The notes beneath the pieces were generated by a model. The model was not told where the DNA came from. It searched no databases and saw nothing but the letters and a program-made list of their open reading frames with translations. A program made the position numbers and the translations under genes. Below are positions 19,998 to 62,875 of a stretch of DNA of 64,000 bases, in pieces (position 1 is the stretch's first letter; each line of letters opens with the position of its first letter). Source of the stretch: Cyanidioschyzon merolae (taxonomy: Eukaryota). The DNA is taken from NCBI GenBank assembly GCA_000091205.1, contig AP006499.2. One strand, given 5' to 3'.

Positions 19998-20208
19998 TTG
20001 GGGTCCATCTGCGATAAACCGCGAAAAAGCATTTGCTTACACGCACCTGGGGTCGGAATATCATTGAGGTCAAAGACTAGAAGCAGAATCCTCTGGGTAC
20101 TTACGCGGGGCGTCGTCCCTCTGGCGAACTTGCGCTCGGAGAGGCGCGCGGATTGTTTATGCAGATTCTCGCGTTTCAACGCATATCAAAAAGGTTTCCG
20201 CAGGCCTC

Positions 20209-41037: not shown

Positions 41038-42253
41038 GTGCTGTATTTAGTTTTCATGGGTCGGAGGAGGTAACCTTCGCGATGCCGCTCCATGCGTCGC
41101 GACCGTATTGGAGAGAGCCACATTGTACCAATTGGCATGATGAACTGACCCGTTTGCGTAGATGCAACTAGCATTGAAAGAAATCGCAGCACGACTTCAT
41201 GAAGGATCCGAATCACGAAAATCGATACCACAGATTAATTGAACTTCCTCCAGTGCGCATTGGCCTTCTACACGGAGAATGGAGTATACTACACCGACGT
41301 CGAACTGCGCGACAATCTTCCATCTATTCGTCTTCATAGTCCAATCGGATAGATTACACCCGGGGTCCGAGAAAGATCCCTCAATTTTTGTGCGGGGCGT
41401 CGAGTCCACTGCGTCCAGTTCATTCTGTTCAGGGATCGTCTCCCTTTAGCTACGGCACGCATGTCCAACGCTTCGTGCATGATTGCGAAAAGGGTCTCAT
41501 GGAGGCTGAGCCCCCGATAGACGAGACCCCAATCAGTTCCGGCCAAAATGGTCGCGAAGTATTGTTGCTACGCAGGTTGCCGCACCCTCTGGTGGGACGC
41601 CTACTGCCCGCCAGCGAACGCGAGCGCTCCTATCTAAAAAATAGACGTAAGCGCTAAAACGGTTTTCGATGTGTAAAAGGCTTAGAAACTCCGTGAAAAG
41701 TTTGTCCTTCCGTGAAGGTGTGTAAATCAGACTCCCAGCAGGCAGCAACTGTTTCTGAAAACCTACCAGAAGGCGATCAAGCAGCCTTTCATTTACTGTT
41801 AACTCATATATGGGAAGTCTTTTTTCTGCCTCAGTCAGAATTCCGCGCCATGTGTCTAGTGCCTGTTGAGAAAACGCACGAAAGCCCAAAAGAAGCCAGC
41901 TTTCCTGCTTCCCTCCACTGGTAAGGTATGCGCGAGAGTCCTTAACGACAGTGCTTTTCCCTGCAACTTCGAATGCGATTTCCGGAAAGAGCCGCGCTTC
42001 CTCCGTTCGGATAAGACTAGGCAACAAGAAACTGTCCTTTAGACCGCGGATAACCTTCGGCGACAACCTAGTCATGAAACCAGGACGCTACGAGGCGCAT
42101 ACAGACGATAGAAATTTTGCCCGCATTCTAGCCACACGCCGCTCGCTCGCCGAAATGCACTGCAGGCAGCTGCTAAATAGATGACAAACGCTTAAATGCG
42201 AAGCAAAACAGACGCTGCTACAATGATCCATCGACGGCTTCTCGGGGCATTCG

Positions 42254-44872
42254 TTATGGAAACTCATAGGCGACTTCCAAAAGAGCAAAATCACATCCCG
42301 GTGCCGCGCGATACAGAGCCAGCAGGCAAGCCATTGGTTTGTTACGAATAGCGGCGAGTCCCTTCTCACGTAGCGAGCCGCGCAAGCTTGCGCCGAAGCG
42401 ACCCAGAAATGCTGTGCGTTTGTTGTAAGTTTTGGCGATCCCTGACCCGAAAACAGTTCTTCCAGGGGTGATGACGACAGGGATCCAGCTATTGTTGTCA
42501 TTCAGAGCGCGAAGGTGCCCAATGTGAATCTCATCGAAGTAAACAGTAGCGAATGAGGATCCTGCTAGCCCTAAAGCCTTCGCTTCCTCGAGCTGAGCCT
42601 TCTCAGGTTTTGAGGTGGATCTGAAGCACGAAAGATATCCGTATACCAGAACCTCTCGTCTTTCTCGTAGAAAGATTTCCGACTGGACTGCTCTAAGTCG
42701 CTCAAACTCAATGCAAAGGTTTTCAATTTTCTCCTGGCCTCCATACAGTGCTGCTAATTGCTCTAGCGTGTCAGTGTATCGAAAGGTGCTATGCTGGATC
42801 CTTCCAAGTGCGAATGTTTGACGTATCTTGACAGATTTTTTCCCCTCCGAGGATTGAATCCATCGAGCTAATGCCAGTATACGACGAACAAGACGATCCT
42901 GCAGAATTACTTTCGGAATATTTTCAGGGAGGCTCGTGCCCTCCGTTCTTTTTTGCTGTTCTCTTACTCCATCTAGCAGGTACATTGAGGTCCATCGGGT
43001 CGAATGTACCTCCATGATGCTGACACCATCAAAAGGAGCATTGTACAGCTCTCGCTTTTCGAGGGATGTTAGCAGGATTGCCGCACCTGGAACGCAGATA
43101 GCATCAAATGCATCGCGTTGGGAGGTTTCATAAAGGCGAATGCAGACGTCTCGCGCTTCGGATCCATCGCGCGCCAAAATGATTCTATATTTCCTAAAAA
43201 TGTAGTAGTCATCTGATGCACTCAGTATTTGCGGTGCACTCGTCCGTTCTGCAGACCTGTACGTCCCGCGCTCTCGATACAGAGGTGACACATGTGTCAC
43301 AATGCATGCTAGAGAGAAATACGAGCGGTCGTCCCATGCATCCAGAGCGCTGGTAAGAATGCAGGGGTGGTAGAGTTCACCCGTTCGACCACCGCCAAGC
43401 TTTGCAATAGGTCCGAAATCAAGTAACTCCTCATAATTATCTGAAAGCTTCCGAATAATGCCCTGGGGCGATGATGCATTCAGGTGAATCTCGCCTCTGC
43501 GTACACGGTAATTCTCTATGATAAGGATGTCACCGAGTTGAATGTGATAAAAATATTTGGAACAAAGCGAATTCCACACGACAACAGTAGCAGAATCCGC
43601 ACCGTCACCTATCTCAAATTCGAATTTGAATGGCACTGACTGCCGCATGTCACTCTTTTTCGGCCATGGCATTAGGGACGTCTTTCTGAGGACGCGCCCG
43701 ATGATTGGTCGCTTCACGTCTCCCATCAGCGCCCTGGCGATGCGCACCGCTGCACTAGTGACTGATTTAATCGAAGCTGGGTCTTCGACACGCTCTACGT
43801 TGCTAGGGTCTCGCAATCTGGAATCGACAGGTAAGGCATCAAACGCTCCAGGACCAAGATAACTCTTTCTCGACGATGCCAAAGGGACATTTGCAGCAGT
43901 CTCAAGCGGGGTGGATGACGTTGTCCAAGCGCATGTCAGGGGAACGTCTATCCAAAAATCCTCGTGGGGTCGACGTAGTACGAGACAGTCATACACAACG
44001 ATTACTCGAGGCGGGTAGAGTCCGCGCAATTCGTTGAAACGAACTGACCATTTTCTTATTTCTAAAATGCTCCCTCGATCTAGGTCACCGGACTGGACGA
44101 TTGAATTCAAATGTGGGTGTAGGCAAAAGCGTGTTTTCGTCTGCTCAACCGGATTGCAGACGGTAATGTCATACGCATCTGCATCCATCTCAGGGATTTC
44201 ATCTTTTGTGCCGTTGACCGTAAACCAATAGGCTTGATCCCGGATATAATGCCGGACGCATAGAACTAGGAACACGATTGAACCGCGGCATTCTTCCCCA
44301 GGAGCACACTCGTGGAGCTTTTCCGTGCCAGCAGTCGTGAATATTTGGTCTCGTTCCTTTGGCTCTGAAGAGCCGCTCTGAACCAGGCTTGAAGAGGCTG
44401 AAACCTGACCTGTGTTGGACTTTGCAAGCTTTTGATTTGCGACTTTTAACGTGCCCTCCCTCGGCCGCTTGCGCTGGTTTCCACGGTTTCCAGTCTGTCG
44501 CTTGCTGCGTGAGTCCCGCGAGTCAGACCCTTCGACCTGTACTGTACGATTCTCTACAGCCTTCTGCAGCGGCTTTGCTCGACTCTTTTGCAGCTCTTCG
44601 TCTTGCCTCCTTTGGAAAATAGGTTTCACATAGTCATCAGCCTTGGTGTCGCCGAAGCGTCCACTTTTACGAGGCATTAACCGTTCTGTACGAGAACGTT
44701 TGTTGTTTTCTCGGATACACTCGCAATCAGAAATTTGCGCCACATTCAAATTGGGCGCGTGCTGGACAGATGGTGCATCATAAGCACAGGATGTATCCAG
44801 CTGCGCGCAGCTTCCGCCTATATCAGTCAAAGATAGAATAGACCCCGTGAGGAAAGTCGGACGTACTCGCAC
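42254..44872 (-). CDS. Large hypothetical protein with possible OB-fold-like segments (RMI1/RPA/CST-like?); function unassigned
   Basis: 872-aa uninterrupted ORF with a basic/acidic low-complexity N-terminal third. The C-terminal part (...SFATVYFDEIHIGHLRALNDNNSWIPVVITPGRTVFG...) looks like a nucleic-acid-binding OB-fold, but I cannot place it. The first ~22 codons (44805-44872) lie inside a dispersed repeat, so the true start is probably an internal Met (~44677). Confidence 0.4.
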   Translation of the reverse strand: MRVRPTFLTGSILSLTDIGGSCAQLDTSCAYDAPSVQHAPNLNVAQISDCECIRENNKRSRTERLMPRKSGRFGDTKADDYVKPIFQRRQDEELQKSRAKPLQKAVENRTVQVEGSDSRDSRSKRQTGNRGNQRKRPREGTLKVANQKLAKSNTGQVSASSSLVQSGSSEPKERDQIFTTAGTEKLHECAPGEECRGSIVFLVLCVRHYIRDQAYWFTVNGTKDEIPEMDADAYDITVCNPVEQTKTRFCLHPHLNSIVQSGDLDRGSILEIRKWSVRFNELRGLYPPRVIVVYDCLVLRRPHEDFWIDVPLTCAWTTSSTPLETAANVPLASSRKSYLGPGAFDALPVDSRLRDPSNVERVEDPASIKSVTSAAVRIARALMGDVKRPIIGRVLRKTSLMPWPKKSDMRQSVPFKFEFEIGDGADSATVVVWNSLCSKYFYHIQLGDILIIENYRVRRGEIHLNASSPQGIIRKLSDNYEELLDFGPIAKLGGGRTGELYHPCILTSALDAWDDRSYFSLACIVTHVSPLYRERGTYRSAERTSAPQILSASDDYYIFRKYRIILARDGSEARDVCIRLYETSQRDAFDAICVPGAAILLTSLEKRELYNAPFDGVSIMEVHSTRWTSMYLLDGVREQQKRTEGTSLPENIPKVILQDRLVRRILALARWIQSSEGKKSVKIRQTFALGRIQHSTFRYTDTLEQLAALYGGQEKIENLCIEFERLRAVQSEIFLRERREVLVYGYLSCFRSTSKPEKAQLEEAKALGLAGSSFATVYFDEIHIGHLRALNDNNSWIPVVITPGRTVFGSGIAKTYNKRTAFLGRFGASLRGSLREKGLAAIRNKPMACLLALYRAAPGCDFALLEVAYEFP

Positions 44873-47635
44873 TATATTCTGGACCTATTTTGCACGACCA
44901 TCAGCACAAGTCATTGCAGTTTGCACCGCGACCGCTTCCTTCTCCTTTCCCGTATCTCCGACTTTCAATACGCTGGCGTCTCCTAGCCCTCCAGCTTCGA
45001 TGTCAGCAGGCGAAGGATGCCGATGGCTGCGTTCATTCGAACCCAGAGTTTCCTGCTTCCAGCCCTCATCGACGTACTTCATGCAAAGGCGGAAGTTGTG
45101 ATCTGCGCTTCTTTTAGCATTTTCATCCTTTTTGTCCACAACTCCGGTGCACCCTTCGCAGCGAGGACACTTGCCCGTTGTCCGGTGCCGCCATACGTCC
45201 ATCGCACGTCTTGCTCCGAGTGCCGCCCTGTGGCGCATGCCTGCTTGCAGTGTCGCTCGGTACACGCCCTCGACGGGTGCAGAGCGCTCCGCTCCATGCG
45301 CTCTTCAGTTTCTGTGCCCAGCGCCATACCCTGCGATCACAGGCTCGGGCTGGGCGATCCCCGCGGCAAGCACCCTCACTGCTGGGCGCGTAAACGCTCG
45401 CTGCTCGATTCGAGTACTCGGAATCCGCTCCCTCGCACGCTCTTCGTTTTTCGCGTACGCTTCCCATCGAAGCTGCCGACGAGCATCACGCGACTCGAGG
45501 TGCCGTGCCAGCTCATGAGTATTGTGCGCGCAGGTTCCATCCACTTGCGACGATGCGGGTCAGCCATCTGCGACTCCCTTCGTCTCCGGTCGCTCGCTCG
45601 CTCGCTTGCGTGTTCTTCTATCCCCATACTCGTTCGCTTCCGCTTCAGCGAAGATGGCAGGCGCGGGAGGAGAAGTCACGACTGTGGGCGTAACTCGGAC
45701 GTTTCCGATCCCGTGCCCCGGGACGGGGTGTCGGTTTCCACATGGGCGTCGGGCTTCGCCTCGGGTCTCACGGAGGCGCTGGTGCAACGCTTCGCTCTCC
45801 TTGGGCTCCTGCCGTTGCTAAGTGCACTGGATTGCAGGTTCACGAGGCCACGCATCTGTACAGCTTGCTGCTCATCGTCGCCGTGTTTCCTGTTCTGAGC
45901 AGGGGTGCGTTGGAGCTCTGATGGGGCCTTGAGGCATGTAGGGCGCTCACGACTGATAGCGGTGGATGCTGCCAGGCCATCGGTCTCGAACGAGGACACC
46001 ACGCCTCCTCGACTTTATGTGAGCGTTCTGTTTCTATCTGTTCCCTGCCTGTCGCATCTCTCTTTAGCGTCGTTCGCTTTTCGTTCCCCCAGCGGTTCAT
46101 GAGTGTCTCCGAAGTTTCGGGCGAAATTTGCGTAGTACGCTTCATGTACTCTATGCTGTCGATGGATACCTCCTCTTCTTCGATGTGCTCCTTGGCCTCC
46201 ATAGGACGTTTCCATGCCCTAATCCCTCGTGCGTGGGCGCCCACTTCGCAGCGAGGCGAAAAAGCCGCGAACCGGGGCGCGCGTACGAGCGACCTATAAA
46301 TGCGTTTACAGCAAGGCGAAAATCCATTCCATTCAGGGGCTCTGGAACAGTTCCCGAGGTGCAGAGGCTGTTTCACTCGCTCGGGTAGGCACTCGCAGGC
46401 TGCAGGTCTATAGTCTCCTCGACATGTTCGTCTTCCAGGATACTCAACGGAGGCTCACGCGCTCTGTATATCCGCCCAGCATATTCAAGTCGGCGAAGCG
46501 CCCGTCATGAAGAGCTCGTCCATGCCGTCCAGGCTGGTATCTGAGTCGTCATCCGCACGTATCCACGTCATCGAATCCTTCACGCGCCATGGGAATGAAT
46601 GCTGGCATGATCCAGGGTCGCGCGGCGTAGTTTTCCGCCCATATACACCTTTGAGTTATCCAGGCTGATTTGGGTCGCGAAGCGAATGCTGGCCTCGAAA
46701 TGCGCAACGTCGTTCGGCTATGGAGCCAAAGTGCCCGCGACGTCGATGAAAGCACAGTGCAGGTGAGGTGTGTCCCGACTACGCTTCGAGACAGTGACGG
46801 CATGAAAGGCCATCGATGCCAACGGTGCATCTACGAAGTTGTTCGGTTTCTCAGGGACCCCGATGCACTGGACGTACACGGTCCTAGGCAGGAGGTAAGC
46901 GCGCCACTGACGCATGCTGCAAAGAAGCGCATGTTTGCGGACGCGGAATCTGATATCCGGCGGGTGCGGGTGCATTTCGAAGTATCCCTTGCCGACAGTG
47001 GTGCCGTAGAATACCTCATACAAACAGCGAAGGAGGGAGTTTCCGAGATCGTATCCCGTGAGATGTAGCGCACTGCTTATTTGGGATGTGGTTTCGTTGA
47101 TGGTTGGAAAGCGAGAATATTTTGTGTTTCAAACGGAATCGATTATATGAGGTGAGGATTTGAACATACTTTCGGTATGAGCTCTTGAAGAAGTATTCGC
47201 ACGAAAACTTCCAACTTTTGCGTCGTCAACCGAGCGTAGCGGCCTGGTGCGCCCACGAGTAGCCTTGAAACATGGAGATCGGAAGCGTGCAGAATGCCTG
47301 ACTTGAGCGTGCAACGCGTAACTAAAGGAAAAGAGTTCAGGCTTCCTTGTACGAATTGCATCATGATATCGGCTATTTTAGGCAACGGTATGTGAGGATA
47401 TCTCGAATCACCTTGATGCTGGTGATGTAACGAATCCCTTCGGTGCAAAGTCGAGGGAGCCACTTTGAAGAGTCGACCGAGAATCCTAGAACGATGCATG
47501 AGTCCTGAGGCCCTCATTGCTGGACTATGAATACTCGGGTCCTGCATCTGAAAATGAGTTCGGGTGAAAAATCGAAATCGAGGAACACAGGCAGCAGCTC
47601 CGTGTTCTACTTCACTCCGACCCGGGTGCCGACTC
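44805..47635. repeat. Unclassified ~2.8-kb GC-rich dispersed repeat, copy 1 (full length)
   Basis: Identical ORF-track translations recur at 50.6-52.0 kb and 60.1-62.9 kb (e.g. the 293-aa ORF at 45017/50774/60270). End points were mapped where the copies diverge. There is no long conserved ORF and no recognisable transposase, RT or LTR/TIR structure. Confidence 0.75.
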
Positions 47636-50319: not shown

Positions 50320-50562
50320 TATCCAACAGTTGCCTCTGTCGAGAAAGAACGATCACCACACAACCCGAGGGCTTCTAGCGAGAATCTCCGGGCATTTTAC
50401 AGCGCACATGGAGCTGTTGCCGATCGCGGGAGCTCTGCGCCTGCACGCCGCTGCTGTGAGCTCGACGCTCGAAAAGCGATCGTGCCTTCCGAGGCGTCGC
50501 GCGTCACCACAAAATCGGTGGGTGCGCTCGAGCCAGCAACCTCGCCGATGCTGCAGCGGGCG

Positions 50563-51950
50563 CGCAGCTTCCGCCTATATCAGTCAAAGATAGAATAGAC
50601 CCCGTGAGGAAAGTCGGACGTACTCGCACTATATTCTGGACCTATTTTGCACGACCATCAGCACAAGTCATTGCAGTTTGCACCGCGACCGCTTCCTTCT
50701 CCTTTCCCGTATCTCCGACTTTCAATACGCTGGCGTCTCCTAGCCCTCCAGCTTCGATGTCAGCAGGCGAAGGATGCCGATGGCTGCGTTCATTCGAACC
50801 CAGAGTTTCCTGCTTCCAGCCCTCATCGACGTACTTCATGCAAAGGCGGAAGTTGTGATCTGCGCTTCTTTTAGCATTTTCATCCTTTTTGTCCACAACT
50901 CCGGTGCACCCTTCGCAGCGAGGACACTTGCCCGTTGTCCGGTGCCGCCATACGTCCATCGCACGTCTTGCTCCGAGTGCCGCCCTGTGGCGCATGCCTG
51001 CTTGCAGTGTCGCTCGGTACACGCCCTCGACGGGTGCAGAGCGCTCCGCTCCATGCGCTCTTCAGTTTCTGTGCCCAGCGCCATACCCTGCGATCACAGG
51101 CTCGGGCTGGGCGATCCCCGCGGCAAGCACCCTCACTGCTGGGCGCGTAAACGCTCGCTGCTCGATTCGAGTACTCGGAATCCGCTCCCTCGCACGCTCT
51201 TCGTTTTTCGCGTACGCTTCCCATCGAAGCTGCCGACGAGCATCACGCGACTCGAGGTGCCGTGCCAGCTCATGAGTATTGTGCGCGCAGGTTCCATCCA
51301 CTTGCGACGATGCGGGTCAGCCATCTGCGACTCCCTTCGTCTCCGGTCGCTCGCTCGCTCGCTTGCGTGTTCTTCTATCCCCATACTCGTTCGCTTCCGC
51401 TTCAGCGAAGATGGCAGGCGCGGGAGGAGAAGTCACGACTGTGGGCGTAACTCGGACGTTTCCGATCCCGTGCCCCGGGACGGGGTGTCGGTTTCCACAT
51501 GGGCGTCGGGCTTCGCCTCGGGTCTCACGGAGGCGCTGGTGCAACGCTTCGCTCTCCTTGGGCTCCTGCCGTTGCTGAGTGCACTGGATTGCAGGTTCAC
51601 GAGGCCACGCATCTGTACAGCTTGCTGCTCATCGTCGCCGTGTTTCCTGTTCTGAGCAGGGGTGCGTTGGAGCTCTGATGGGGCCTTGAGGCATGTAGGG
51701 CGCTCACGACTGATAGCGGTGGATGCTGCCAGGCCATCGGTCTCGAACGAGGACACCACGCCTCCTCGACTTTATGTGAGCGTTCTGTTTCTATCTGTTC
51801 CCTGCCTGTCGCATCTCTCTTTAGCGTCGTTCGCTTTTCGTTCCCCCAGCGGTTCATGAGTGTCTCCGAAGTTTCGGGCGAAATTTGCGTAGTACGCTTC
51901 ATGTACTCTATGCTGTCGATGGATACCTCCTCTTCTTCGATGTGCTCCTT
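50563..51950. repeat. Dispersed repeat, copy 2 (3'-truncated, ~1.39 kb)
   Basis: Shares the same 5' boundary (including ~70 bp gcgcagcttccgcctatatcagtcaaagatagaatagaccccgtgaggaaagtcg) with copy 1. Identity ends at ...gatgtgctcctt | gttctaacgc. Confidence 0.75.
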
Positions 51951-52155
51951 GTTCTAACGCGGCCTCAAAACCTTTTTCTTGATCGCGGGACACCTACTTA
52001 GCTGGAACATTGTATGCAAAATCGCTCATGTTTGTTAATACAGAGACCCCGGAGGCACATTCACATGCACGTTCGGGCCCACATTCTCATTCGAAAAAAC
52101 TAACATACAAGTAAGTTCCACAATGCCAAATCTGGCGTGGTTTATGGCGGTACAA

Positions 52156-53922
52156 CTATTTTCTGCTATTCATAGGCTTGGGATCACGAAAAAGTTTCTC
52201 GTCGCTCAGACCATGTGAGTTGAGAAATGTCACTAGAAGTCGCACACGTTTTTCGATTTTTGTAGGCTCTGCCACAACTGAAGTATCCACAGATCGTTCC
52301 GCAGTAGGACACGTGTTTCGTAGCACTTGGCGGAGAGGAGAAAGAGCTTTTCTTCCATAAAAGGAGCAAAGTTCAATCAGAAGATGGCCGTAAAACTCGT
52401 TCGTCTTCTTTTCATTCAGATAACACTGGAGAATAGCTTCTAAAGCCTGATACAGCGAAGCGCTTCGTGAACTACGGCTTAGTAACTTGTAAATTCTTGA
52501 AGCGGCTTCTATGAAATTCACAGAGGAGGCCAAAATCTCAACAACTGATCTGCCAGTCGCGCTCCAGATACGATTCCTATCCAGTAAAGAAGAGATTCGA
52601 TCCTTGGATTCCAAGAGCTCAGTAGCTCCTGACGTACCCTTCGACGAAGCCCTTCTGGTGAGGCTAGAATTCTCCCAAAGGATCCCGCCATCAGTTACTA
52701 GGCTCTCCTTGCTCGCATCATCACAAACTTCGGGGCGTTTTGAAATAGTCGCGTTTGCTCTAATGCGTTTTTCGTAAACGAAAGATGATCCTAGTTTGGC
52801 ATGAACCCACAGTAAAGCTTCGGGCACAGGTTCCAGAGCGCTCTGAGCGCTCAGCTCTTGTGATCGACTTTCGCGTACGACGTCCGCAATAACTGTTTCT
52901 ATCATGTAAACTGTGCAGCCTTCATGAAACTCTCTGAAGTGGCTGCTTCTTTCGCATCCACACGAGGTAGTCTCATGCATGTTCCTACAGATACTTCTTA
53001 GTTGAGCCTCGAATGCCGCAAACTTTTCGGGAAAAGAATTACGAAGATGCAAACCACAGAGCTTCGTGACATGAAGCATACCAACGAGACCGACTGCGTT
53101 TCCGCTGTTGAGCACGGATGACTTGGCAAGTTCAAATACGACTTCCCATTCAATCATTCCGCCCAGAAACAGATGGCATAGCGGCGTTAAAGCATCAAGC
53201 AAATTTTGCAAGTCTAATCTTCCGGATGCTCCAACATTTTGGAGCCTCTCTGTGACTTTCACGAAAAAGCAGTTGACGAAACTAGCGTCGACGGTGCAGT
53301 GAAGATAAATCAGAACAGCACACAAAGCTGCACAGTTAAATGTTGATACGCCTTCATGCTGCCCTTTTGGGTTTTCCATAGCAACCGAATTTTCAAACGT
53401 GCGCCCCATGCGAGCAGAACAAAGAACTGTACAAAATATGTCTCTCAAATGGACGAACCCAAGGGGGTCATGACGAATCTCAGAAAAATACTTGTAAAGT
53501 TTGCTGCAAGTGAGGTCCAGATTCGTGTCCGAAACTCGGTTAAGAATGCTGCTCAGTTGCGAAACGAGACTATCAATCTCATTTTGGGTCCAGGTTTTTC
53601 CCTTTTCCCGCGCACTCGACAGCTTGGTAGCCGTCCCCTCTTGTGGGGCCACATCTTCGTCAACTGCATCTGCGGAAAGACTGGTCTCAGCACCAGACTT
53701 CATCGACTTAACCTTCTGGTTGTTGCTTTTTAAAAGCGGTCCTATGATCACGCCCAGAGAGTCTACGTCGTTTGAAAGAAACTCCGCAGCCTCCCACGTC
53801 TTCAAATCAGTTTGAGGAAAGGCGTACGGGCTCCCACGGCTCTTTCTCTTTCTTGAAAACTTCCGATCGAAGCCTTCAATCTTTCTCTTCAATCTGCTTT
53901 GCAGGCTCAGCTCCTCGTCCAT
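52156..53922 (-). CDS. MIF4G/MA3-domain protein, NOM1/Sgd1-like (nucleolar, ribosome-biogenesis family), tentative
   Basis: Central segment ...FNCAALCAVLIYLHCTVDASFVNCFFVKVTERL... resembles the NOM1/Sgd1 MIF4G block (...vyAALvaaL...G.efga.flq.lve.l). Basic N-terminus, and a C-terminal helical region compatible with MA3. Confidence 0.4.
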   Translation of the reverse strand: MDEELSLQSRLKRKIEGFDRKFSRKRKSRGSPYAFPQTDLKTWEAAEFLSNDVDSLGVIIGPLLKSNNQKVKSMKSGAETSLSADAVDEDVAPQEGTATKLSSAREKGKTWTQNEIDSLVSQLSSILNRVSDTNLDLTCSKLYKYFSEIRHDPLGFVHLRDIFCTVLCSARMGRTFENSVAMENPKGQHEGVSTFNCAALCAVLIYLHCTVDASFVNCFFVKVTERLQNVGASGRLDLQNLLDALTPLCHLFLGGMIEWEVVFELAKSSVLNSGNAVGLVGMLHVTKLCGLHLRNSFPEKFAAFEAQLRSICRNMHETTSCGCERSSHFREFHEGCTVYMIETVIADVVRESRSQELSAQSALEPVPEALLWVHAKLGSSFVYEKRIRANATISKRPEVCDDASKESLVTDGGILWENSSLTRRASSKGTSGATELLESKDRISSLLDRNRIWSATGRSVVEILASSVNFIEAASRIYKLLSRSSRSASLYQALEAILQCYLNEKKTNEFYGHLLIELCSFYGRKALSPLRQVLRNTCPTAERSVDTSVVAEPTKIEKRVRLLVTFLNSHGLSDEKLFRDPKPMNSRK

Positions 53923-54029
53923 GGTCAGCTAAACCCGTCTCCAGTAAAGCAAGGGAAACCAGCTGTGCACGCACGCCTTTTATCGAGGGACTGCCGTTTT
54001 CGAAATCGCGTTGTATGGATCGCTAACTG

Positions 54030-55393
54030 CGCCCATGCAGGAGTGATTTGGAACTGGTCCCACGTAATTTACTCGGTCGAACACTCTAGTCTTTCAGCCT
54101 CTTCCGTCCGTCATTAACTTCAGCCTTTGCGAGCAGTTTCTGCGTATGTTTCCTTTCCTTTTCCCGTACCTCCGGCTTTAAGTGTGCCGGTACCTCACTT
54201 CCATCCAGCTCCGTTCGAAGCAGTCGAAGGATGGTAATAGTGGCCTTAGGGTCCCGAGTTCATTGCCTACGGTTGCTTTCTACGCATTTCATGCACAGAC
54301 GGTAGTTGCGGCCTGCGCGTCACTTCCCATTTTTATTTTCTATGCATACAGCCTACGTGTGCCCTTCGCTGCGGTGAGACTCGGCCCGGTTCAGTTGTTC
54401 ACATATTTCTACAATGTCCCGTCCTCCGCGGGCACCCCTGTGGCTCGAGGTAGCTTGCTATATCGCTCAGTATATGCCTTTGACCCGTACAGAGGTCTTG
54501 TATCGATGCCCTCCTCGGTTTTTCGCGCGCGGTGCCGTATCCTACGATCATGGGCTTCTTCTGGACGGTTTTCTCAGCGAACATGCTGAAGGCTGCATGC
54601 ACGTGCGAACCTTGTTCCATTTGATAAAAGATTTCTTGTATGCGTGAATGCCCTTGATGGTGCACGCACCGGTAGGTTAATCCCGCATGGAGAAGTCTAG
54701 AAATTCCGATCCGAGTGCGCTTCCTCTGTGGAGAGCGGTGACGCAGACGCCACAGGGAGCGATCGTTGTCATGACTGAAGACGGAGTCCAAAAACATTCT
54801 CCAAGCGAACAGACGACTCAAGAGCCACTCGGAGCGCATCCCTAGAAGGTACCATGCTCCTGCAGAGTCTTATTTAATCGACGGCCGCTAAAAGAGGTAG
54901 ACCAGTTCGTCGAACAAAATCGACTGTTGAACTTGGCAAGTTAGGTCAACTTTCTGAACGACTTTGTGAACATGTCGTTCATGGACGACGTAGAGCCTAT
55001 TTTCTCGTCAATTCATAGGCACGAATTACCGCGACAATGAGTTGCCTTGAAGCAGAGAGATCCGCAACATGAAGAACGCGGGATATGAAAATGTTACAAG
55101 AAAAGAAAGGAAAATACCATGGGTGTGGCAGTATTAATTGGAAACGGTGCCGGCCATTGTACGAACGCTCGTTCCACGGCACCGCGAATCATCCTGATTC
55201 CGGTGATGCGTTTAACTCCGGCAGCGAAACGTCGATGTAAACTTTCCGAAAATACGACCAAGCACCCTGAACTAAGAATGAAACAGTCAAGCCTTATTGC
55301 GACACCTGAGAGAGTCGAGGCTGAACGACTGAAAACCTGGGGGAAGATCATAGCACAAGTATAGAGCAAACCATTCAGTGGTGCACTTAATGC
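54030..55393. repeat. Inverted-repeat arm (~1.36 kb), partner of 56856..58225
   Basis: ORF translations are mirrored on opposite strands (54182..54589+ equals 57661..58068-; 54399..54839- equals 57411..57851+; 55119..55364+ equals 56886..57131-), with one or two substitutions. Confidence 0.8.
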
Positions 55394-56855
55394 TTGCGCA
55401 TATGGTTACTGTGCACGGGATAATAGTATGGAGAGATCTCTTCTATACATCATCAATATGCTGTGTGGGAGGAAGGAATTCATATTCCTACCGCGTAAAA
55501 ACTCGTGCATTTCTATTCGCGTTCGGACAGTAACGTCTTCTAGTCACTGTCTGCGTCACCTTCGAAGACAAAAAAGCTTTGCTCGCAAAACTGACATTTT
55601 TCCGGAATATTTTTACAACGCCCGCAAATAATCGCTAATCCTACTCTATAACCGAATTGTTTAAATAACGGGTACCGGGAAAGATCTGGTTGTTCTACAA
55701 ATTGTGCACTGAACGTTCTGCGCGTGATGCATTTTACTTCTATAGAAAATTGAATTTTCAACACCGAAACCGCTTATTGCGCGCAACCTAAATCGGCGCA
55801 GCGGATTGAGTTTTGATTTACTGCTTGGAAGCTAACTGTTCTATGCTGAATATTCTCTGCGATACGGCAATTCTTTGATCACTTAGTAGACGTCGTTCTA
55901 CTTTTAACATATTCTAACTCTTTTGGGGTTGGCGTGTTCAATTTCGCCTGGCCCGTTCTAGCTGGGGCTGTCTAAAAAGACCAGTTGTCTCTTGTCGTGC
56001 GTTCCATTGCTGCCCGAATGCCATTTCATATTTATTGGTTCAAACCCAAAAAAACTGTCTGACTCTGCTCCGTTGTATCAAGCGAGCCACTTCAATGGGT
56101 CAGAGGTTGTTGAGAACGTCGTATTCTTTCAACCATTAACACAGTTTCAGAAGACGACCGAAGGTTTGCTGGCTGGGACAAGATTTTGCGAAAATTTGCA
56201 GTGCAGCAAATCGGGGATCGATTATTCTTAACAAGTAGAAATGAGATCAAGCTCGAAGAATCAATGAAAATGTGTTTATTCTGCCGTAGGTCGCTCGTTT
56301 TCATCCTTCTGTGCACCCATTATTGTTGGATGTTGTTGCGCTTGAGATGAAGACCCTTTCATAGCTCTCCTAGAATAGAAGTTCATTAGAAATGAAAACT
56401 GCACGATTCAGAAATAAGCTACAGATTCAGGAGTATCTGTTTTGATTCATTCTATTCTCTTCAATTTTTGCTGCCCAAAAAATGCATGTCCAGAGCCCCG
56501 ACGATTCTAGCTAAGCCCTATCTTTCCAGTTTTGCGAACCAGAGTAGTTTTCGACACTAGACATCAAATATTCGGCGTAGAGCGAGGCCGTTTATGATTT
56601 TGTAGCAGAAGAGAGCAAAGCATTCAATTCACGCGTGGTATCTCAGATCAAATGCAGAGTCTCAATCATGACCGTGCCATTTCCATGGCTTCATTTTAGT
56701 GGTGTATCTTCAGGATGTTTTCTGCAGCCGCTGACCGCAGGAAACCACAGTTTCATCGTACACAGACGCTAATTCACCTTGATGAGAGGCTATGGCAGGC
56801 ATATTGCGATGCAGGCGGATGCTGCGACCACAGCACTTCTTTGTACTTCAGTGTC

Positions 56856-58225
56856 AGCTTTAAGTGCACCACTGAATGGTTTGCTCTATACTTGTGCTAT
56901 GATCTTCCCCCAGGTTTTCAGTCGTTCAGCCTCGACTCTCTCAGGTGTCGCAATAAGGCTTGACTGTTTCATTCTTAGTTCAGGGTGCTTGGTCGTATTT
57001 TCGGAAAGTTTACATCGACGTTTCGCTGCCGGAGTTAAACGCATCACCGGAATCAGGATGATTCGCGGTGCCGTGGAACGAGCGTTCGTACAATGGCCGG
57101 CACCGTTTCCAATTAATACTGCCACACCCATGGTATTTTCCTTTCTTTTCTTGTAACATTTTCATATCCCGCGTTCTTCATGTTGCGGATCTCTCTGCTT
57201 CAAGGCAACTCATTGTCGCGGTAATTCGTGCCTATGAATTGACGAGAAAATAGGCTCTACGTCGTCCATGAACGACATGTTCACAAAGTCGTTCAGAAAG
57301 TTGACCTAACTTGCCAAGTTCAACAGTCGATTTTGTTCGACGAACTGGTCTACCTCTTTTAGCGGCCGTCGATTAAATAAGACTCTGCAGGAGCATGGTA
57401 CCTTCTAGGGATGCGCTCCGAGTGGCTCTTGAGTCGTCTGTTCGCTTGGAGAATGTTTTTGGACTCCGTCTTCAGTCATGACAACGATCGCTCCCTGTGG
57501 CGTCTGCGTCACCGCTCTCCACAGAGGAAGCGCACTCGGATCGGAATTTCTAGACTTCTCCATGCGGGATTAACCTACCGGTGCGTGCACCATCAAGGGC
57601 ATTCACGCATACAAGAAATCTTTTATCAAATGGAACAAGGTTCGCACGTGCATGCAGCCTTCAGCATTTTCGCTGAGAAAACCGTCCAGAAGAAGCCCAT
57701 GATCGTAGGATACGGCACCGCGCGCGAAAAACCGAGGAGGGCATCGATACAAGACCTCTGTACGGGTCAAAGGCATATACTGAGCGATATAGCAAGCTAC
57801 CTCGAGCCACAGGGGTGCCCGCGGAGGACGGGACATTGTAGAAATATGTGAACAACTGAACCGGGCCGAGTCTCACCGCAGCGAAGGGCACACGTAGGCT
57901 GTATGCATAGAAAATAAAAATGGGAAGTGACGCGCAGGCCGCAACTACCGTCTGTGCATGAAATGCGTAGAAAGCAACCGTAGGCAATGAACTCGGGACC
58001 CTAAGGCCACTATTACCATCCTTCGACTGCTTCGAACGGAGCTGGATGGAAGTGAGGTACCGGCACACTTAAAGCCGGAGGTACGGGAAAAGGAAAGGAA
58101 ACATACGCAGAAACTGCTCGCAAAGGCTGAAGTTAATGACGGACGGAAGAGGCTGAAAGACTAGAGTGTTCGACCGAGTAAATTACGTGGGACCAGTTCC
58201 AAATCACTCCTGCATGAGCGCATTC
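56856..58225. repeat. Inverted-repeat arm, partner of 54030..55393
   Basis: See partner arm. The arms flank a ~1.46-kb AT-richer, ORF-free core (55394..56855). Confidence 0.8.
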
Positions 58226-58886
58226 CATACAATGATCACCTCTGGCAAGCTCGAATCGCCCGAGAAACCTTGAAAGCATTCTATACTTTTTCAGAATTGG
58301 AGGGAAAATTGAAAGCTTTGCCTCAAAACGATTGATAACAAAAAAGGCTGCCTAACCCGAAACCCCGAACTCATACGTCCGTACGCTTGACTTAAAAACT
58401 CGTGCATGAAAACTATTCGAGATTGCCGTATACCAAAAAGTAGATCGATTCATCACATAAGTGCATATCTGCACCCTTTCGCTAATCTGAAACTTGTTCG
58501 TCTGTGGGTTCCAGGTCGCGTGAATAACTCTGCTTGAAGATACAAATCATGATAACGTGTGAAGTCTATGAATTACCACTGGATTGATGAAAAATTTCTC
58601 AGCATATGCGCATCACCTACTGTTTAAAAAGCTCTTGAGAATTTTTACAGAACATGCTCACAATTTCGAAATGCGCGGTTACTTGGTAAGCGACTCTCGT
58701 CTAGGCTGTACTGAACTCGGGGAGTATCTGATAATGAGATGCAGAAATATTGCAAGTATCTAGGCTCTCGAAAGCTTCTCATACCTTGCTAAGGATCACT
58801 GCCTGAAGCATGGCTGATCCTGGGAACATCGCTGTGGAAAATTCAGTTCCTCTAAATTAAGCGTTCTGTAAGTTTGTAGCCAGAAT

Positions 58887-59912
58887 ATGGTATTTGTTAG
58901 GGTACTAGCCAAACCTATTACCTTTCGCTATCTTTCCTTGATTTTAATTTTATACGGAAGTCTTTCTGCTTCTATTGTTGCTGAGAAAAATTGCGTAGTC
59001 TTGGCGGCAAATGTTTTCAACAACGTAGGAACGGTAGACCTGTTTCACACGCTCCTCTCTGACTTAGAGGGAATGCTACAAGCCGCTGGGTTTTCCACAG
59101 GCCTGTGCATCTACGAAGACAACTCGAGGGATGGTACCGACGTTCGAGTTTCCCAGTGGAATCAGTCCCGGCGAGGAACACCGTTCACGAGGATCCTTGC
59201 AGACAAGACACCCCCCACGGCAACGGAACGCGTGTCGAGAATAGCAGTTGTTCGCAGCCGTTTGCTGAATCTTATCCATGAGGTTCTGGCGGAAATGCAA
59301 AATTGTTCTGGACGGTATATATTATTTTTTAACGATGTTGTCTTCGAACCATCGGATGTTCATAAGATGGTGCTAGACGGAATCCGGCAGAACTTTGACA
59401 TGCTCTGCGCAGTGGACGTCTATCGAGGGTTTTATGACCGTTGGGTTACTCGGGATGCCTCTGGATTGATCCCATCGCGGTGGGCATCTGTCTTCTTCAC
59501 CGGGAAAACTGGTTCCAGAATACGCAATAAAGATGCAACTGAGTGGCGGACAGATTTTTGGCCTTCGAGAGCCTGCTGGAATGGAGCTGTTTTGGTTAAC
59601 GCAGAAAGTGCACCGCGCAGTTTCCGCAGTGCGAGGAATGACGAATGCTATGCTTCAGAATGCAAGCTTTTTGTTGACGATCTCTTGAAGGAACGTGGCG
59701 GCCAAGCGCGTGTTGCGGTGAGACTCGATACGCTTGTGGCGTACGACGTTATCCATCTCTTACTACATAAGTTTGTTATCAGGACATATGCCTCCCATAT
59801 TGCTGCTTTTCAAAGCCTCGGAGAACTCATTGTGAAAGCGAAGCATCGCTATCAGGCGGAGAGGGTTCTCCAATCAGACCCCTGTCCGAAATTACCAATG
59901 CTTTGTTGTTGA
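58887..59912 (+). CDS. Putative type-II membrane (Golgi-type) glycosyltransferase-like protein; family unassigned
   Basis: N-terminal signal-anchor (ITFRYLSLILILYGSLSASIV), then a globular domain with ...RYILFFNDVVFEPSDV... and ...DMLCAVDVYRGFYDRWVTRD.... Topology and spacing recall fungal/algal Cap59-like (GT69) or related transferases. Weak. Confidence 0.3.
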   Translation: MVFVRVLAKPITFRYLSLILILYGSLSASIVAEKNCVVLAANVFNNVGTVDLFHTLLSDLEGMLQAAGFSTGLCIYEDNSRDGTDVRVSQWNQSRRGTPFTRILADKTPPTATERVSRIAVVRSRLLNLIHEVLAEMQNCSGRYILFFNDVVFEPSDVHKMVLDGIRQNFDMLCAVDVYRGFYDRWVTRDASGLIPSRWASVFFTGKTGSRIRNKDATEWRTDFWPSRACWNGAVLVNAESAPRSFRSARNDECYASECKLFVDDLLKERGGQARVAVRLDTLVAYDVIHLLLHKFVIRTYASHIAAFQSLGELIVKAKHRYQAERVLQSDPCPKLPMLCC

Positions 59913-60102
59913 TTGCTACGGAAATGTTTTGAACTGTTTCACGAATCATTGTTATTTATTTTCAAAAGTAACTCATGAAACTCTCGCAAAGAATTGAAGC
60001 GCATGTGGCCATCCTCCTGTAAGGCGCTTAGCCGTTTAAAAACCATTAATATGGCCCACGCAGATCGTCTTAGACCTATATTAATTTCAGATGGAGGAGA
60101 TC

Positions 60103-62875
60103 CTCGCACACGGACGTACTCGCACTATATTCTGGACCTATTTTGCACGACCATCAGCACAAGTCATTGCAGTTTGCACCGCGACCGCTTCCTTCTCCTT
60201 TCCCGTATCTCCGACTTTCAATACGCTGGCGTCTCCTAGCCCTCCAGCTTCGATGTCAGCAGGCGAAGGATGCCGATGGCTGCGTTCATTCGAACCCAGA
60301 GTTTCCTGCTTCCAGCCCTCATCGACGTACTTCATGCAAAGGCGGAAGTTGTGATCTGCGCTTCTTTTAGCATTTTCATCCTTTTTGTCCACAACTCCGG
60401 TGCACCCTTCGCAGCGAGGACACTTGCCCGTTGTCCGGTGCCGCCATACGTCCATCGCACGTCTTGCTCCGAGTGCCGCCCTGTGGCGCATGCCTGCTTG
60501 CAGTGTCGCTCGGTACACGCCCTCGACGGGTGCAGAGCGCTCCGCTTCATGCGCTCTTCAGTTTCTGTGCCCAGCGCCATACCCTGCGATCACAGGCTCG
60601 GGCTGGGCGATCCCCGCGGCAAGCACCCTCACTGCTGGGCGCGTAAACGCTCGCTGCTCGATTCGAGTACTCGGAATCCGCTCCCTCGCACGCTCTTCGT
60701 TTTTCGCGTACGCTTCCCATCGAAGCTGCCGACGAGCATCACGCGACTCGAGGTGCCGTGCCAGCTCATGAGTATTGTGCGCGCAGGTTCCATCCACTTG
60801 CGACGATGCGGGTCAGCCATCTGCGACTCCCTTCGTCTCCGGTCGCTCGCTCGCTCGCTTGCGTGTTCTTCTATCCCCATACTCGTTCGCTTCCGCTTCA
60901 GCGAAGATGGCAGGCGCGGGAGGAGAAGTCACGACTGTGGGCGTAACTCGGACGTTTCCGATCCCGTGCCCCGGGACGGGGTGTCGGTTTCCACATGGGC
61001 GTCGGACTTCGCCTCGGGTCTCACGGAGGCGCTGGTGCAACGCTTCGCTCTCCTTGGGCTCCTGCCGTTGCTGAGTGCACTGGATTGCAGGTTCACGAGG
61101 CCACGCATCTGTACAGCTTGCTGCTCATCGTCGCCGTGTTTCCTGTTCTGAGCAGGGGTGCGTTGGAGCTCTGATGGGGCCTTGAGGCATGTAGGGCGCT
61201 CACGACTGATAGCGGTGGATGCTGCCAGGCCATCGGTCTCGAACGAGGACACCACGCCTCCTCGACTTTATGTGAGCGTTCTGTTTCTATCTGTTCCCTG
61301 CCTGTCGCATCTCTCTTTAGCGTCGTTCGCTTTTCGTTCCCCCAGCGGTTCATGAGTGTCTCCGAAGTTTCGGGCGAAATTTGGGTAGTACGCTTCATGT
61401 ACTCTATGCTGTCGATGGATACCTCCTCTTCTTCGATGTGCTCCTTGGCCTCCATAGGACGTTTCCATGCCCTAATCCCTCGTGCGTGGGCGCCCACTTC
61501 GCAGCGAGGCGAAAAAGCCGCGAACCGGGGCGCGCGTACGAGCGACCTATAAATGCGTTTACAGCAAGGCGAAAATCCATTCCATTCAGGGGCTCTGGAA
61601 CAGTTCCCGAGGTGCAGAGGCTGTTTCACTCGCTCGGGTAGGCACTCGCAGGCTGCAGGTCTATAGTCTCCTCGACATGTTCGTCTTCCAGGATACTCAA
61701 CGGAGGCTCACGCGCTCTGTATATCCGCCCAGCATATTCAAGTCGGCGAAGCGCCCGTCATGAAGAGCTCGTCCATGCCGTCCAGGCTGGTATCTGAGTC
61801 GTCATCCGCACGTATCCACGTCATCGAATCCTTCACGCGCCATGGGAATGAATGCTGGCATGATCCAGGGTCGCGCGGCGTAGTTTTCCGCCCATATACA
61901 CCTTTGAGTTATCCAGGCTGATTTGGGTCGCGAAGCGAATGCTGGCCTCGAAATGCGCAACGTCGTTCGGCTATGGAGCCAAAGTGCCCGCGACGTCGAT
62001 GAAAGCACAGTGCAGGTGAGGTGTGTCCCGACTACGCTTCGAGACAGTGACGGCATGAAAGGCCATCGATGCCAACGGTGCATCTACGAAGTTGTTCGGT
62101 TTCTCAGGGACCCCGATGCACTGGACGTACACGGTCCTAGGCAGGAGGTAAGCGCGCCACTGACGCATGCTGCAAAGAAGCGCATGTTTGCGGACGCGGA
62201 ATCTGATATCCGGCGGGTGCGGGTGCATTTCGAAGTATCCCTTGCCGACAGTGGTGCCGTAGAATACCTCATACAAACAGCGAAGGAGGGAGTTTCCGAG
62301 ATCGTATCCCGTGAGATGTAGCGCACTGCTTATTTGGGATGTGGTTTCGTTGATGGTTGGAAAGCGAGAATATTTTGTGTTTCAAACGGAATCGATTATA
62401 TGAGGTGAGGATTTGAACATACTTTCGGTATGAGCTCTTGAAGAAGTATTCGCACGAAAACTTCCAACTTTTGCGTCGTCAACCGAGCGTAGCGGCCTGG
62501 TGCGCCCACGAGTAGCCTTGAAACATGGAGATCGGAAGCGTGCAGAATGCCTGACTTGAGCGTGCAACGCGTAACTAAAGGAAAAGAGTTCAGGCTTCCT
62601 TGTACGAATTGCATCATGATATCGGCTATTTTAGGCAACGGTATGTGAGGATATCTCGAATCACCTTGATGCTGGTGATGTAACGAATCCCTTCGGTGCA
62701 AAGTCGAGGGAGCCACTTTGAAGAGTCGACCGAGAATCCTAGAACGATGCATGAGTCCTGAGGCCCTCATTGCTGGACTATGAATACTCGGGTCCTGCAT
62801 CTGAAAATGAGTTCGGGTGAAAAATCGAAATCGAGGAACACAGGCAGCAGCTCCGTGTTCTACTTCACTCCGACA
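60103..62875. repeat. Dispersed repeat, copy 3 (near full length; lacks the first ~70 bp seen in copies 1 and 2)
   Basis: Co-linear with 44875..47635 at near identity. Single-aa differences appear in the mirrored ORF translations (e.g. RSMRSS vs RFMRSS). The end point cttcactccgac | atgagtcc is identical to copy 1's. Confidence 0.75.

Follow-up and report, generated by a model that had tools for sequence, protein, structure and literature searches.

Chromosome 17 of the red alga Cyanidioschyzon merolae 10D contains a real inverted repeat of 4.2 kb, which consists of two near-identical, opposed copies of a non-coding dispersed repeat. The sequence analyzed here (the window) is a 64-kb interior stretch of this core chromosome that covers about 5% of its length, and the term 'accessory region' used in the initial annotation was therefore unfounded. 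On balance, we favor the explanation that two inverted members of the repeat family are kept near-identical by gene conversion and provide a substrate on which recombination could invert the spacer between them. Rather than a novel type of mobile element, the structure most likely represents a side effect of repeat insertion and gene conversion.

The left arm (54028–55394, plus strand) and the right arm (56856–58222, minus strand) are each 1367 nt long and are separated by 1461 nt. They differ at three positions (54033/58217, 54582/57668, and 55391/56859; 99.8% identity), with a single mismatch in the central 1357 nt. The initial annotation had recognized the inverted repeat and the near-identity of its arms, but the coordinates it gave (54030–55393 and 56856–58225) were off by 2–3 nt. 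The left arm points its 5′ end outward and its 3′ end toward the core. Outside the arms, an extra 9-nt match, TTGTATGGA, is present at 54011–54019 and 58224–58232, past an indel of 8 versus 1 nt. Read directly from the sequence, the outer extremity of the left copy (54011–54027, plus strand) is degenerate and consists of TTGTATGGA followed by 8 nt, and the outermost part of the right copy (58223–58232) is its mirror image with 1 nt replacing those 8; the left element probably starts at about 54011. Three of the four arm-arm differences fall within 25 nt of an arm end (P ~2e-4 if uniform), a clustering that is partly definitional because the arm ends are where identity stops. The whole foldback is gene-free, has a GC content of 47.6% over 4.2 kb (50% in the arms, 51.7% in the window), and fills the intergenic region that separates the divergent genes CMQ144C and CMQ146C.

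All four junctions of the inverted repeat were recovered in independent, short-read environmental assemblies. The flank-to-arm junctions are reproduced in metagenome, ENA, and Logan contigs (L002–L004 and L017–L020), the arm-core-arm arrangement in contigs L028–L030, and a collapsed 1357-nt arm contig was also found (L031–L033). Because independent assemblies reproduce every junction, the foldback is not an assembly artefact. Hairpin-capped breaks and foldback duplications leave little or no spacer. An origin of the palindrome in a hairpin-capped double-strand break, a breakage-fusion-bridge cycle, or fold-back priming, or in faulty assembly, would agree with a kb-scale, near-perfect inverted duplication with another foldback at a distance of 13 kb (from the arm end at 41038 to the arm start at 54028). 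We nevertheless regard this origin as extremely improbable, given that the spacer of 1461 nt is not short, that the duplicated segment is exactly one unit of a repeat family and not arbitrary flanking DNA, and that the junctions recur in many independent short-read assemblies as well as in the finished, Sanger-based reference genome (PMC1955436).

Contigs also provided information on the copy number of the arm. A scan with 24-mers from the outer end returned three contigs only, each of which continued into one of the two flanks. The 81-aa ORF of the arm was found in at least 13 contigs, and all 10 placements listed map to the foldback locus. No third copy of the arm sub-family was present among the contigs from either search, and among contigs carrying arm ends or the arm ORF the arm-core-arm composite was seen at the foldback locus only. 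A scan of viral contigs for 24- to 28-mers of the arm and the R copies gave no match. In Yellowstone-type contigs, both those linked to the left flank and those linked to the right flank have a C where both 10D arms have a G (54971/57279), a shared difference that favors concerted change of the arms but could stem from collapsed assembly of both.

Each arm is a complete short-form copy (~1.4 kb) of a repeat family that has seven members in the window: the two arms, X, Y, and R1–R3. X (8479–9879, plus strand) and Y (27940–29336, minus strand) are solo short forms that are ~55% (over the full length) and ~56% identical to the arm, respectively. R1 (44803–47621, plus strand) is a long form in which ~600 nt at the 5′ end and ~600 nt at the 3′ end are homologous to the arm ends, and its insert of ~1.6 kb carries a paralogue of the small gene CMQ147C. 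R2 (50560–51951, plus strand) comprises nucleotides 1–1392 of the long form and is 99.9% identical to R1. R3 (60056–62874, plus strand) also has the long form, matches R1 with 99.9% identity across 2764 nt, and contains the annotated gene CMQ147C (61096–61455, minus strand). Searches with the ORFs of the R copies found almost no homologues in protein databases: a 293-aa ORF returned its own cluster only, and phmmer with the insert ORF gave one real distant homologue of 175 aa, a match to a TPR protein being rejected as spurious.

Membership of the arms in this family was established with pairwise comparisons, terminus alignments, and a profile built from the left arm, X, and Y and searched by nhmmer. 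The profile aligned with the left arm at 54007–55400 (model positions 3–1402) and with the right arm at 58223–56851 (23–1401). It also matched R1, R2, and R3 at model positions 24–619 and R1 and R3 at 803–1401, with E values of 1e-70 to 6e-72. Because the profile itself includes the left arm as one of its three source sequences, the informative results are the matches to R1–R3 and the pairwise scores. In the latter, arm positions 54133–54595 were 65% identical to 44916–45384 of R1 with a local score of 110 (shuffle maximum 18), and scores of 160 (shuffle 18) and 177 were obtained for 54049–55056 versus 8522–9527 in X and for 54071–55298 versus 29288–28051 in Y. The initial statement that the arm is unrelated to the 2.8-kb dispersed repeat was wrong, since the profile matches both ends of these repeats with E ~1e-70. 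Sequence comparison did agree that the arms are unrelated to those of the 34.8–41.0 kb foldback, a result that lends no support to the specific mechanisms proposed there. At the inner terminus, arm-arm identity stops no more than 4 alignment columns from the divergence of R1 and R3; at the outer terminus, it begins within ~15 nt of the start of agreement between R1 and R2, and just before the start of R1 lies GATGTATCC, which is similar to TTGTATGGA. Both arm boundaries therefore coincide with family termini, and the foldback contains two complete copies arranged tail to tail.

The near-identical members of the family are physical neighbors: the arms are 1.5 kb apart and R1, R2, and R3 lie within 18 kb, and all remaining pairs are 51–59% identical. 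The arms would owe their near-identity to upkeep by intrachromosomal gene conversion between two complete copies that lie tail to tail, 3′ ends inward and 1461 bp apart, between CMQ144C and CMQ146C. C. merolae is valued because its genome is fully finished and almost free of repeats and because its homologous recombination is efficient; this efficiency makes conversion plausible. Homogenization of the interior by conversion also leads to the expectation that differences are found at the arm ends. Alternatively, the near-identity may stem from recent local copying of one element, by inverted duplication or local transposition of a resident copy, in which case the resemblance of the arms would reflect their recent origin. 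The identity of 99.8%, the detection of just two copies of the sub-family, and the coincidence of arm boundaries with element termini, which fits element-specific copying, are all consistent with this alternative. It appears unlikely, however, as neither copy has a target-site duplication and the extreme 5′ ends differ by an indel and a substitution although the interior is almost perfect; a generic template-switch duplication, moreover, would not be expected to stop at both element termini. Maintenance by conversion stays our preferred reading; against it count the lack of a third sub-family copy among the contigs and the coincidence that two independent insertions 1.5 kb apart would represent. 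The old copies are about equally divergent (51–59% identical) and have conserved lengths of 1.38–1.40 kb, which hints at constraint and is not explained by a passive model.

The arms and the core contain nothing that resembles coding sequence and match no known RNA family. The ORFs of the arms score ~0 bits per codon (codon log-odds), compared to 0.06–0.14 for 13 real genes. Comparison of family members by tblastx gave equal strength in all six frames, and their substitutions displayed no 3-nt periodicity. No Pfam domain was detected in the arms, and Rfam searches at the gathering threshold and at E<=5 returned nothing in arms or core; tRNAs are absent as well. Hallmarks of mobile elements were also sought, at the ends in particular, as had been suggested at the outset. 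No direct repeat indicative of a target-site duplication was found around either arm or the composite (outer flanks ...atcgcg/TTGTATGGA and TCCATACAA/tgatcac; inner flanks tgcgcat and gacactg), and comparisons for terminal inverted repeats within the arm gave shuffle-level scores only. Poly(A) and an encoded enzyme are absent from the family, and TRF detected just one 12-nt x 1.9 repeat per arm and no tandem sub-repeats. Helitrons have 5′-TC and 3′-CTRR termini with a sub-terminal hairpin and insert between A and T. The arm ends (TTGTATGGA.../TGCGCC... and ...GCACTTAATGCT) and the 3′ end of R1 (...CACTCCGAC) do not have these features, and a Helitron was rejected.

These results bear on the possibility that the whole 4.2-kb arm-core-arm unit is mobile as a Foldback/MITE-like composite transposon, which we consider highly improbable. 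Long terminal inverted repeats around a non-coding core and the membership of the arms in a dispersed family are in line with such a unit. Foldback (FB) transposons have terminal inverted repeats made of tandem sub-repeats, however, and the arms have none; a target-site duplication is lacking, the window holds no second copy of the core, the contigs with arm ends or the arm ORF all map to one locus, the other family members in the window are solo and never foldbacks, and 4.2 kb is far too large for a MITE. Of the active foldback-generating process postulated in the initial annotation, the involvement of a repeat family and a rearrangement-prone neighborhood were borne out in a loose sense, and the Foldback/MITE and hairpin-break mechanisms were not.

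The spacer between the arms (core, 55395–56855) is 1461 nt long, has 43.0% GC, is non-coding, and has no second copy in the window. The description of the core as AT-richer and devoid of a recognizable gene holds, as the core has no ORF longer than 89 codons and no match in Pfam or, at E<=5, in Rfam. When the two halves of the core, the two outer flanks, or the core and parts of the R copies were compared, similarity was at the shuffle level only, which for the halves and the flanks concerns extended homology. The core is the lowest-GC stretch of its length in the window (0.4th percentile), and low GC is typical of intergenic DNA across the window. By analogy with other organisms, an AT-rich unique core with inverted-repeat flanks could represent the centromere of chromosome 17. 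The low GC of the core and of the gene-free foldback as a whole is compatible with this idea, and the foldback resembles the C. merolae centromeres described in a secondary source as single, 2–3-kb low-GC regions with a mean of 48.4% GC compared to 55% for the genome (bioRxiv 10.1101/096016). Against the idea, the window represents only about 5% of the chromosome, low GC is common to its intergenic DNA, and the same source gives low GC as the sole pattern (bioRxiv 10.1101/096016); a 1.4-kb perfect inverted repeat presumably would have been noted. A centromeric foldback is therefore very improbable, and only marginally less so is the proposal that the core would be a CENH3-binding centromere or a flip-flopping segment used as one.

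CMQ144C (52156–53922, minus strand; 588 aa, MA3 domain) and CMQ146C (58887–59912, plus strand; 341 aa, CAP59-type mannosyltransferase family) are both transcribed away from the foldback, and the start codon of CMQ144C lies 106 nt from the left arm. Both arms thus lie upstream of genes that face outward, and their orientation relative to these genes is the same, an arrangement that would suit a functional element: an invertible switch between the two genes, duplicated upstream regulatory modules, or a long hairpin RNA gene. Transcript-like contigs of CMQ144C stop at 53988–54011, right at the border of the left copy, and no protein bears the locus number CMQ145. Among the transcript-like contigs, however, none ties the arms to either gene, and those of CMQ146C begin at 58653–58708, ~430–480 nt outside the right arm. 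A functional RNA is disfavored by the lack of an Rfam match, and C. merolae is not known to have Dicer or Argonaute, which speaks against a hairpin RNA. For a switch, contigs that join the core in both orientations (L001/L021 versus L027) would be pertinent, but assemblers take arbitrary paths through repeats of 1.2–1.4 kb: L011 joins R3 to the flank of R2, and at the second foldback L039/L040 disagree with L035/L036. Because the same assemblies cross other repeats of this size by paths that contradict the reference, core orientation in contigs was rejected as evidence. We judge a functional element to be quite improbable; the structure is probably without a dedicated function.

Around both foldbacks, genes are ordered and oriented differently than in Cyanidiococcus and a third lineage. 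A homologue search with CMQ144C returned its own cluster only, and tblastn on related loci identified orthologues that are 31–32% identical. In two related lineages a distance of 1.8 kb separates the tandem orthologues of CMQ146C and CMQ144C; the C. merolae genes are transcribed divergently and have the foldback between them. Cyanidiococcus has its own 1.9-kb inverted repeat around the orthologous gene block (a 175-aa ORF in its arm was rejected as the P0023 homologue of CMQ147C). When arms and core were compared with the syntenic loci of Cyanidiococcus and lineage B, no similarity emerged at the nucleotide level, with profiles, or after translation. Under conversion between inverted copies, arm homology would permit reciprocal recombination and hence spacer inversion, and such copies are likely agents of the nearby changes in gene orientation between the genera. 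Spontaneous inversion is likely at a kb-scale inverted repeat that conversion maintains in intergenic DNA on the promoter side of genes, and such a repeat is a practical hazard for gene targeting and short-read assembly near CMQ144C/CMQ146C and for the choice of 'neutral' integration sites. The coincidence of inverted repeats with gene-order differences from Cyanidiococcus offers a concrete handle on rearrangement in such a compact genome, and the dispersed family combines well-defined termini with both short and long forms and is homogenized locally. These findings do not overturn current knowledge. If the centromere reading were true, a red alga would have an inverted-repeat centromere like fission yeast and Komagataella; if a weaker variant were true, conversion-maintained inverted repeats would drive the gene-order inversions that separate the Cyanidioschyzon and Cyanidiococcus lineages.

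Several known systems resemble the foldback in part. Like FB elements and MITEs, it has long inverted termini and a non-coding interior, but it lacks sub-repeat arrays and a target-site duplication, is seen at a single locus among the contigs searched, and is 4.2 kb long. As in a composite transposon, the arms are complete copies of an element that has solo copies elsewhere; in contrast, the foldback has no transposase, element terminal inverted repeats, target-site duplication, or evidence of movement. With the inverted-repeat centromeres of S. pombe, Candida tropicalis, and Komagataella phaffii it shares a gene-free, AT-rich unique core (1–4 kb) and kb-scale inverted repeats. This resemblance is structural only: C. 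merolae centromeres are reported to have no repeat pattern, and a second foldback in the same window means that the structure is not unique per chromosome. Palindromes kept by conversion, such as plastid inverted repeats and those of the primate Y, likewise have kb-scale arms that are at least 99.8% identical, a unique spacer with the potential to flip-flop, and differences at the arm ends. They differ in that the foldback arms are gene-free and are copies of a dispersed repeat, not of a unique segment, and in that conversion and flipping are proposed processes here.

With respect to the family itself, an interspersed repetitive element of C. merolae is present on all chromosomes in 253 copies with a mean length of 3.2 kb, makes up ~5% of the genome, and has a truncated ORF weakly similar to WSV486 of WSSV (Nozaki et al., 2007; PMC1955436); its copies have also been termed 'WSV repeats' (PMC5405695). 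The family in the window differs from it in that the arms are a 1.38-kb short form, 51–59% identical to the other members, and in the near absence of homologues of the R ORFs. The two are alike in being dispersed and intergenic without a recognizable transposase or reverse transcriptase, and the long form of 2.8 kb, the density of seven members in 64 kb, and transcript-like contigs that run through R3 also agree. The family in the window may correspond to the WSV486-like repeat of Nozaki et al. (2007; PMC1955436).

A search of the named region of the window for inverted repeats returned a single long one, the foldback, with a left arm at 54028–55394 (+) and a right arm at 56856–58222 (−), each of 1367 nt, around a core of 1461 nt (55395–56855). 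The arms are nearly identical, as the initial annotation stated, and differ at exactly three positions (54033/58217, 54582/57668 and 55391/56859, in mirrored coordinates). Therefore, one differing site lies in the central 1357 nt. Past an 8-versus-1-nt indel outside the arms is a further 9-nt match (TTGTATGGA, 54011–54019 and 58224–58232), beyond which the outer flanks resemble each other no better than shuffled sequence; similarity between the two core halves is also at that level. The core is indeed AT-richer (43.0% GC, compared with 50% in the arms and 51.7% in the window), is the lowest-GC 1461-nt stretch of the 64-kb window, and has no second copy within it. We considered whether the foldback is the centromere of chromosome 17. 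In structure it is similar to inverted-repeat centromeres, and in composition it agrees with what has been reported for C. merolae centromeres (2–3 kb, about 48% GC), but those were reported without any other pattern (bioRxiv 10.1101/096016) and the window is only 5% of the chromosome. We consider this identity very improbable.

The junctions recur in contigs of JGI metagenomes and of ENA and Logan assemblies. The left flank continues 80–147 nt into the arm in L002–L004, and the right flank likewise runs into the arm in L017–L020. Contigs L028–L030 contain an arm, the core and a stub of the opposite arm, and L031–L033 consist of the arm alone, a 1357-nt contig delimited by the two end mismatches, which is the de Bruijn-graph appearance of a collapsed two-copy inverted repeat. 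The foldback is well supported and is not an assembly artefact. Flipping of the core was also considered, since L001 and L021 run from the left flank through the arm to the far core end, opposite to the reference, whereas L027 shows the reference arrangement at the right flank. These paths were rejected as evidence because the same data sets cross other 1.2–1.4-kb repeats against the reference: L011, by mis-join or structural variation, leads from one copy of the 2.8-kb dispersed repeat (R3) into the flank of another (R2), and L039/L040 and L035/L036 connect an arm of the window's other inverted repeat (the first foldback) to either flank, so that paths across that repeat are unreliable. The hot-spring metagenomes (JGI 3300001340, 3300005861, 3300025503 and others; L001–L033) contain Cyanidioschyzon sequence that, over several kb, matches 10D, the reference strain from Italy, at 99.7–100% identity; in several newer samples identity is 100% over 2.1–2.4 kb.

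The arms and core are non-coding, in keeping with the initial description of the core. The longest ORFs of the arms, of 135 and 146 aa, overlap on opposite strands and score about 0 bits per codon, on a scale where 13 real genes score 0.06–0.14. Pfam searches of arm, core and dispersed-repeat ORFs gave no match, and no Rfam match (even at E≤5) or tRNA was found. Among family members, tblastx similarity was equally strong in all six frames and substitutions had no 3-nt periodicity. When the core and arms were compared with the syntenic loci in two related lineages, no similarity was seen at the nucleotide, profile or translated level.

The arms had been described as unrelated to the 2.8-kb dispersed repeat, which proved incorrect. 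Sensitive BLASTN aligned each arm with all three copies of that repeat (R1, 44803–47621; R2, 50560–51951; R3, 60056–62874; all +) at 64% identity over 415 nt, and also with the window at positions 8.6–9.3 kb. Local alignment scores were 110 for arm/R1, 160 for arm/8522–9527 and 177 for arm/29288–28051, compared with shuffle maxima of 16–18, and the 3′ parts of the arm and of R1 also aligned. We combined the left arm with two solo copies, X (8479–9879) and Y (27940–29336, minus strand), into a profile, which matched R1, R2 and R3 at model positions 24–619 and R1 and R3 at 803–1401 (E about 1e-70). This makes the 2.8-kb repeats long forms of the arm element with an internal insert of ~1.6 kb, R2 being the 1392-nt 5′ portion of a long form; the arms, X and Y are short forms of 1.38–1.40 kb. 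The start of arm–arm identity is about 15 nt or less from the point at which R1 and R2 begin to agree, and its end is within 4 alignment columns of where R1 and R3 cease to agree. Thus, and this is our key point, the ends of the inverted repeat are element ends; each arm is a complete element, and the two are arranged tail to tail. No third copy of the arm sub-family was visible in the contigs scanned: an outer-end 24-mer occurred in three contigs only, each joined to the left or right flank, and all 10 places listed for the arm's 81-aa ORF, from 13 contigs read, map to the foldback locus.

This family probably corresponds to the "novel interspersed repetitive element" described in C. merolae, which has 253 copies averaging 3.2 kb, makes up 5% of the genome and is transcribed (PMC1955436). 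The published element is defined by a WSV486-like ORF, and the ORFs of R1–R3 have almost no database homologues. H3K27me3 has been reported on about half of all repetitive elements annotated in C. merolae, counting WSV repeats together with transposable elements (PMC5405695). The old members (X, Y, arms and R ends) are all about equidistant, yet near-constant in length, and have in common a CT-rich block ~130–160 nt from the 5′ end. That copies so divergent have kept their length hints that this supposedly non-coding repeat is under some constraint. CMQ147C, an annotated 120-aa hypothetical gene in the long form (61096–61455, −; paralogous copies at 45843–46202 and 51600–51950, −), has a 175-aa homologue, P0023 (43% identity, tblastn E about 5e-20, contigs up to 175 kb), and may thus be a genuine, conserved gene carried along by the repeat. 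A separate short similarity (150–220 nt, 70–73% identity) is common to four intergenic sites of the window (7472–7639, 19600–20082, 31586–31738 and 38684–39189), one of them in the spacer of the first foldback.

Exact protein look-up identified the flanking genes as CMQ144C (52156–53922, −; MA3 domain) and CMQ146C (58887–59912, +; CAP59-type mannosyltransferase family) of 10D chromosome 17 (1,232,258 bp). That genome is finished and Sanger-era (PMC1955436), and the site is the interior of a core chromosome, not the "accessory region" first proposed. Both genes face away from the foldback, which thus occupies a 4.96-kb divergent intergenic region. Transcript-like contigs of CMQ144C stop at 53988–54011 (six samples) and those of CMQ146C begin at 58653–58708 (five samples), outside the arms; the neighbouring mRNAs therefore exclude them. 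The 5′ end of the left copy adjoins the CMQ144C start region, and the putative promoter of this gene would overlap that copy. The ~8.1-kb segment from CMQ144C to CMQ146C lies between R2 and R3, which are direct repeats (99.9% identity over 1392 nt), an arrangement consistent with the gene pair having been relocated through recombination at repeat copies.

Orthologues of CMQ146C (49% identical) were found in Cyanidiococcus yangmingshanensis (L044) and a third lineage (L045–L048). Both relatives have the order Toc34-like (−), CMQ146C orthologue (+), CMQ144C orthologue (+), MRP-L27 (+), the last three in tandem with a CMQ146C–CMQ144C spacer of about 1.8 kb. The C. merolae genes CMQ144C and CMQ146C diverge from the intervening foldback, with R2 and R3 outside, and the Toc34-like gene (36619–38538, −) and MRP-L27 (39276–39506, +) are 12 kb away, enclosed by the first foldback (arms 34805–36043 and 39800–41038). 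Cyanidiococcus has its own gene-free 1.9-kb inverted repeat (L044 4220–6122 and 15685–17586, GCA_026122185.1; 97–99% identity) around the entire four-gene block. Compared with its arrangement in the third lineage, this block is inverted with respect to a RADX-like neighbour; the third lineage (L045) has no such inverted repeat. This suggests a repeat-mediated inversion or a long-lived, conversion-maintained inverted repeat in Cyanidiococcus. Thus, inverted repeats recur at gene-order differences in this neighbourhood, which loosely supports the earlier view that it is rearrangement-prone; the arms of the three inverted repeats have no detectable sequence in common, consistent with the annotation for the two in the window. 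C. merolae may be the outgroup, which bears on the polarity of these changes. The arms of the first foldback show no relation to the dispersed family, and their 9 mismatches are evenly spread. Transcript-like contigs from near 39230 extend from MRP-L27 into the right arm of this foldback, the left arm of which begins about 410 nt downstream of the stop codon of a PPR gene, and transcript-like contigs connect that gene to an arm; the MRP-L27 and PPR-gene mRNAs may therefore carry complementary 1.2-kb 3′ extensions.

Near-identity within the family is confined to neighbouring copies, namely the arm pair and R1, R2 and R3 within 18 kb; all remaining pairs are 51–59% identical. Of the four differences between the arms, three fall no more than 25 nt from an arm end (P about 2e-4 for a uniform distribution, with arm ends partly defined by where identity stops). 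Relative to both 10D arms, the Yellowstone-type contigs linked to each flank have one substitution in common, a pattern that a collapsed assembly could mimic. Taken together, these patterns are consistent with a pair of inverted family copies that would have been homogenised internally by intrachromosomal gene conversion. Conversion would be expected to continue, and occasional reciprocal exchange between the arms would invert the 1461-nt spacer; efficient homologous recombination is a known trait of C. merolae (PMC8504449). The main alternative is a recent element-specific copying event that made the two arms, which one genome window does not separate from conversion. Under either mechanism, the inverted repeat is most likely a by-product of the repeat family and not a dedicated foldback element.

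The Foldback/MITE-like origin and the hairpin-capped breakage proposed initially are not supported. Tandem sub-repeats and terminal inverted repeats inside an element are absent, and the target-site duplications sought at either arm and around the whole unit were not found; the foldback thus lacks the tested defining features of Foldback elements and MITEs. It differs likewise from Helitrons, whose canonical termini are absent from the element ends, and from break-induced palindromes, its arm boundaries being element termini. In architecture it is similar to a composite transposon, but without the defining features tested for that class. The foldback also resembles conversion-maintained palindromes.
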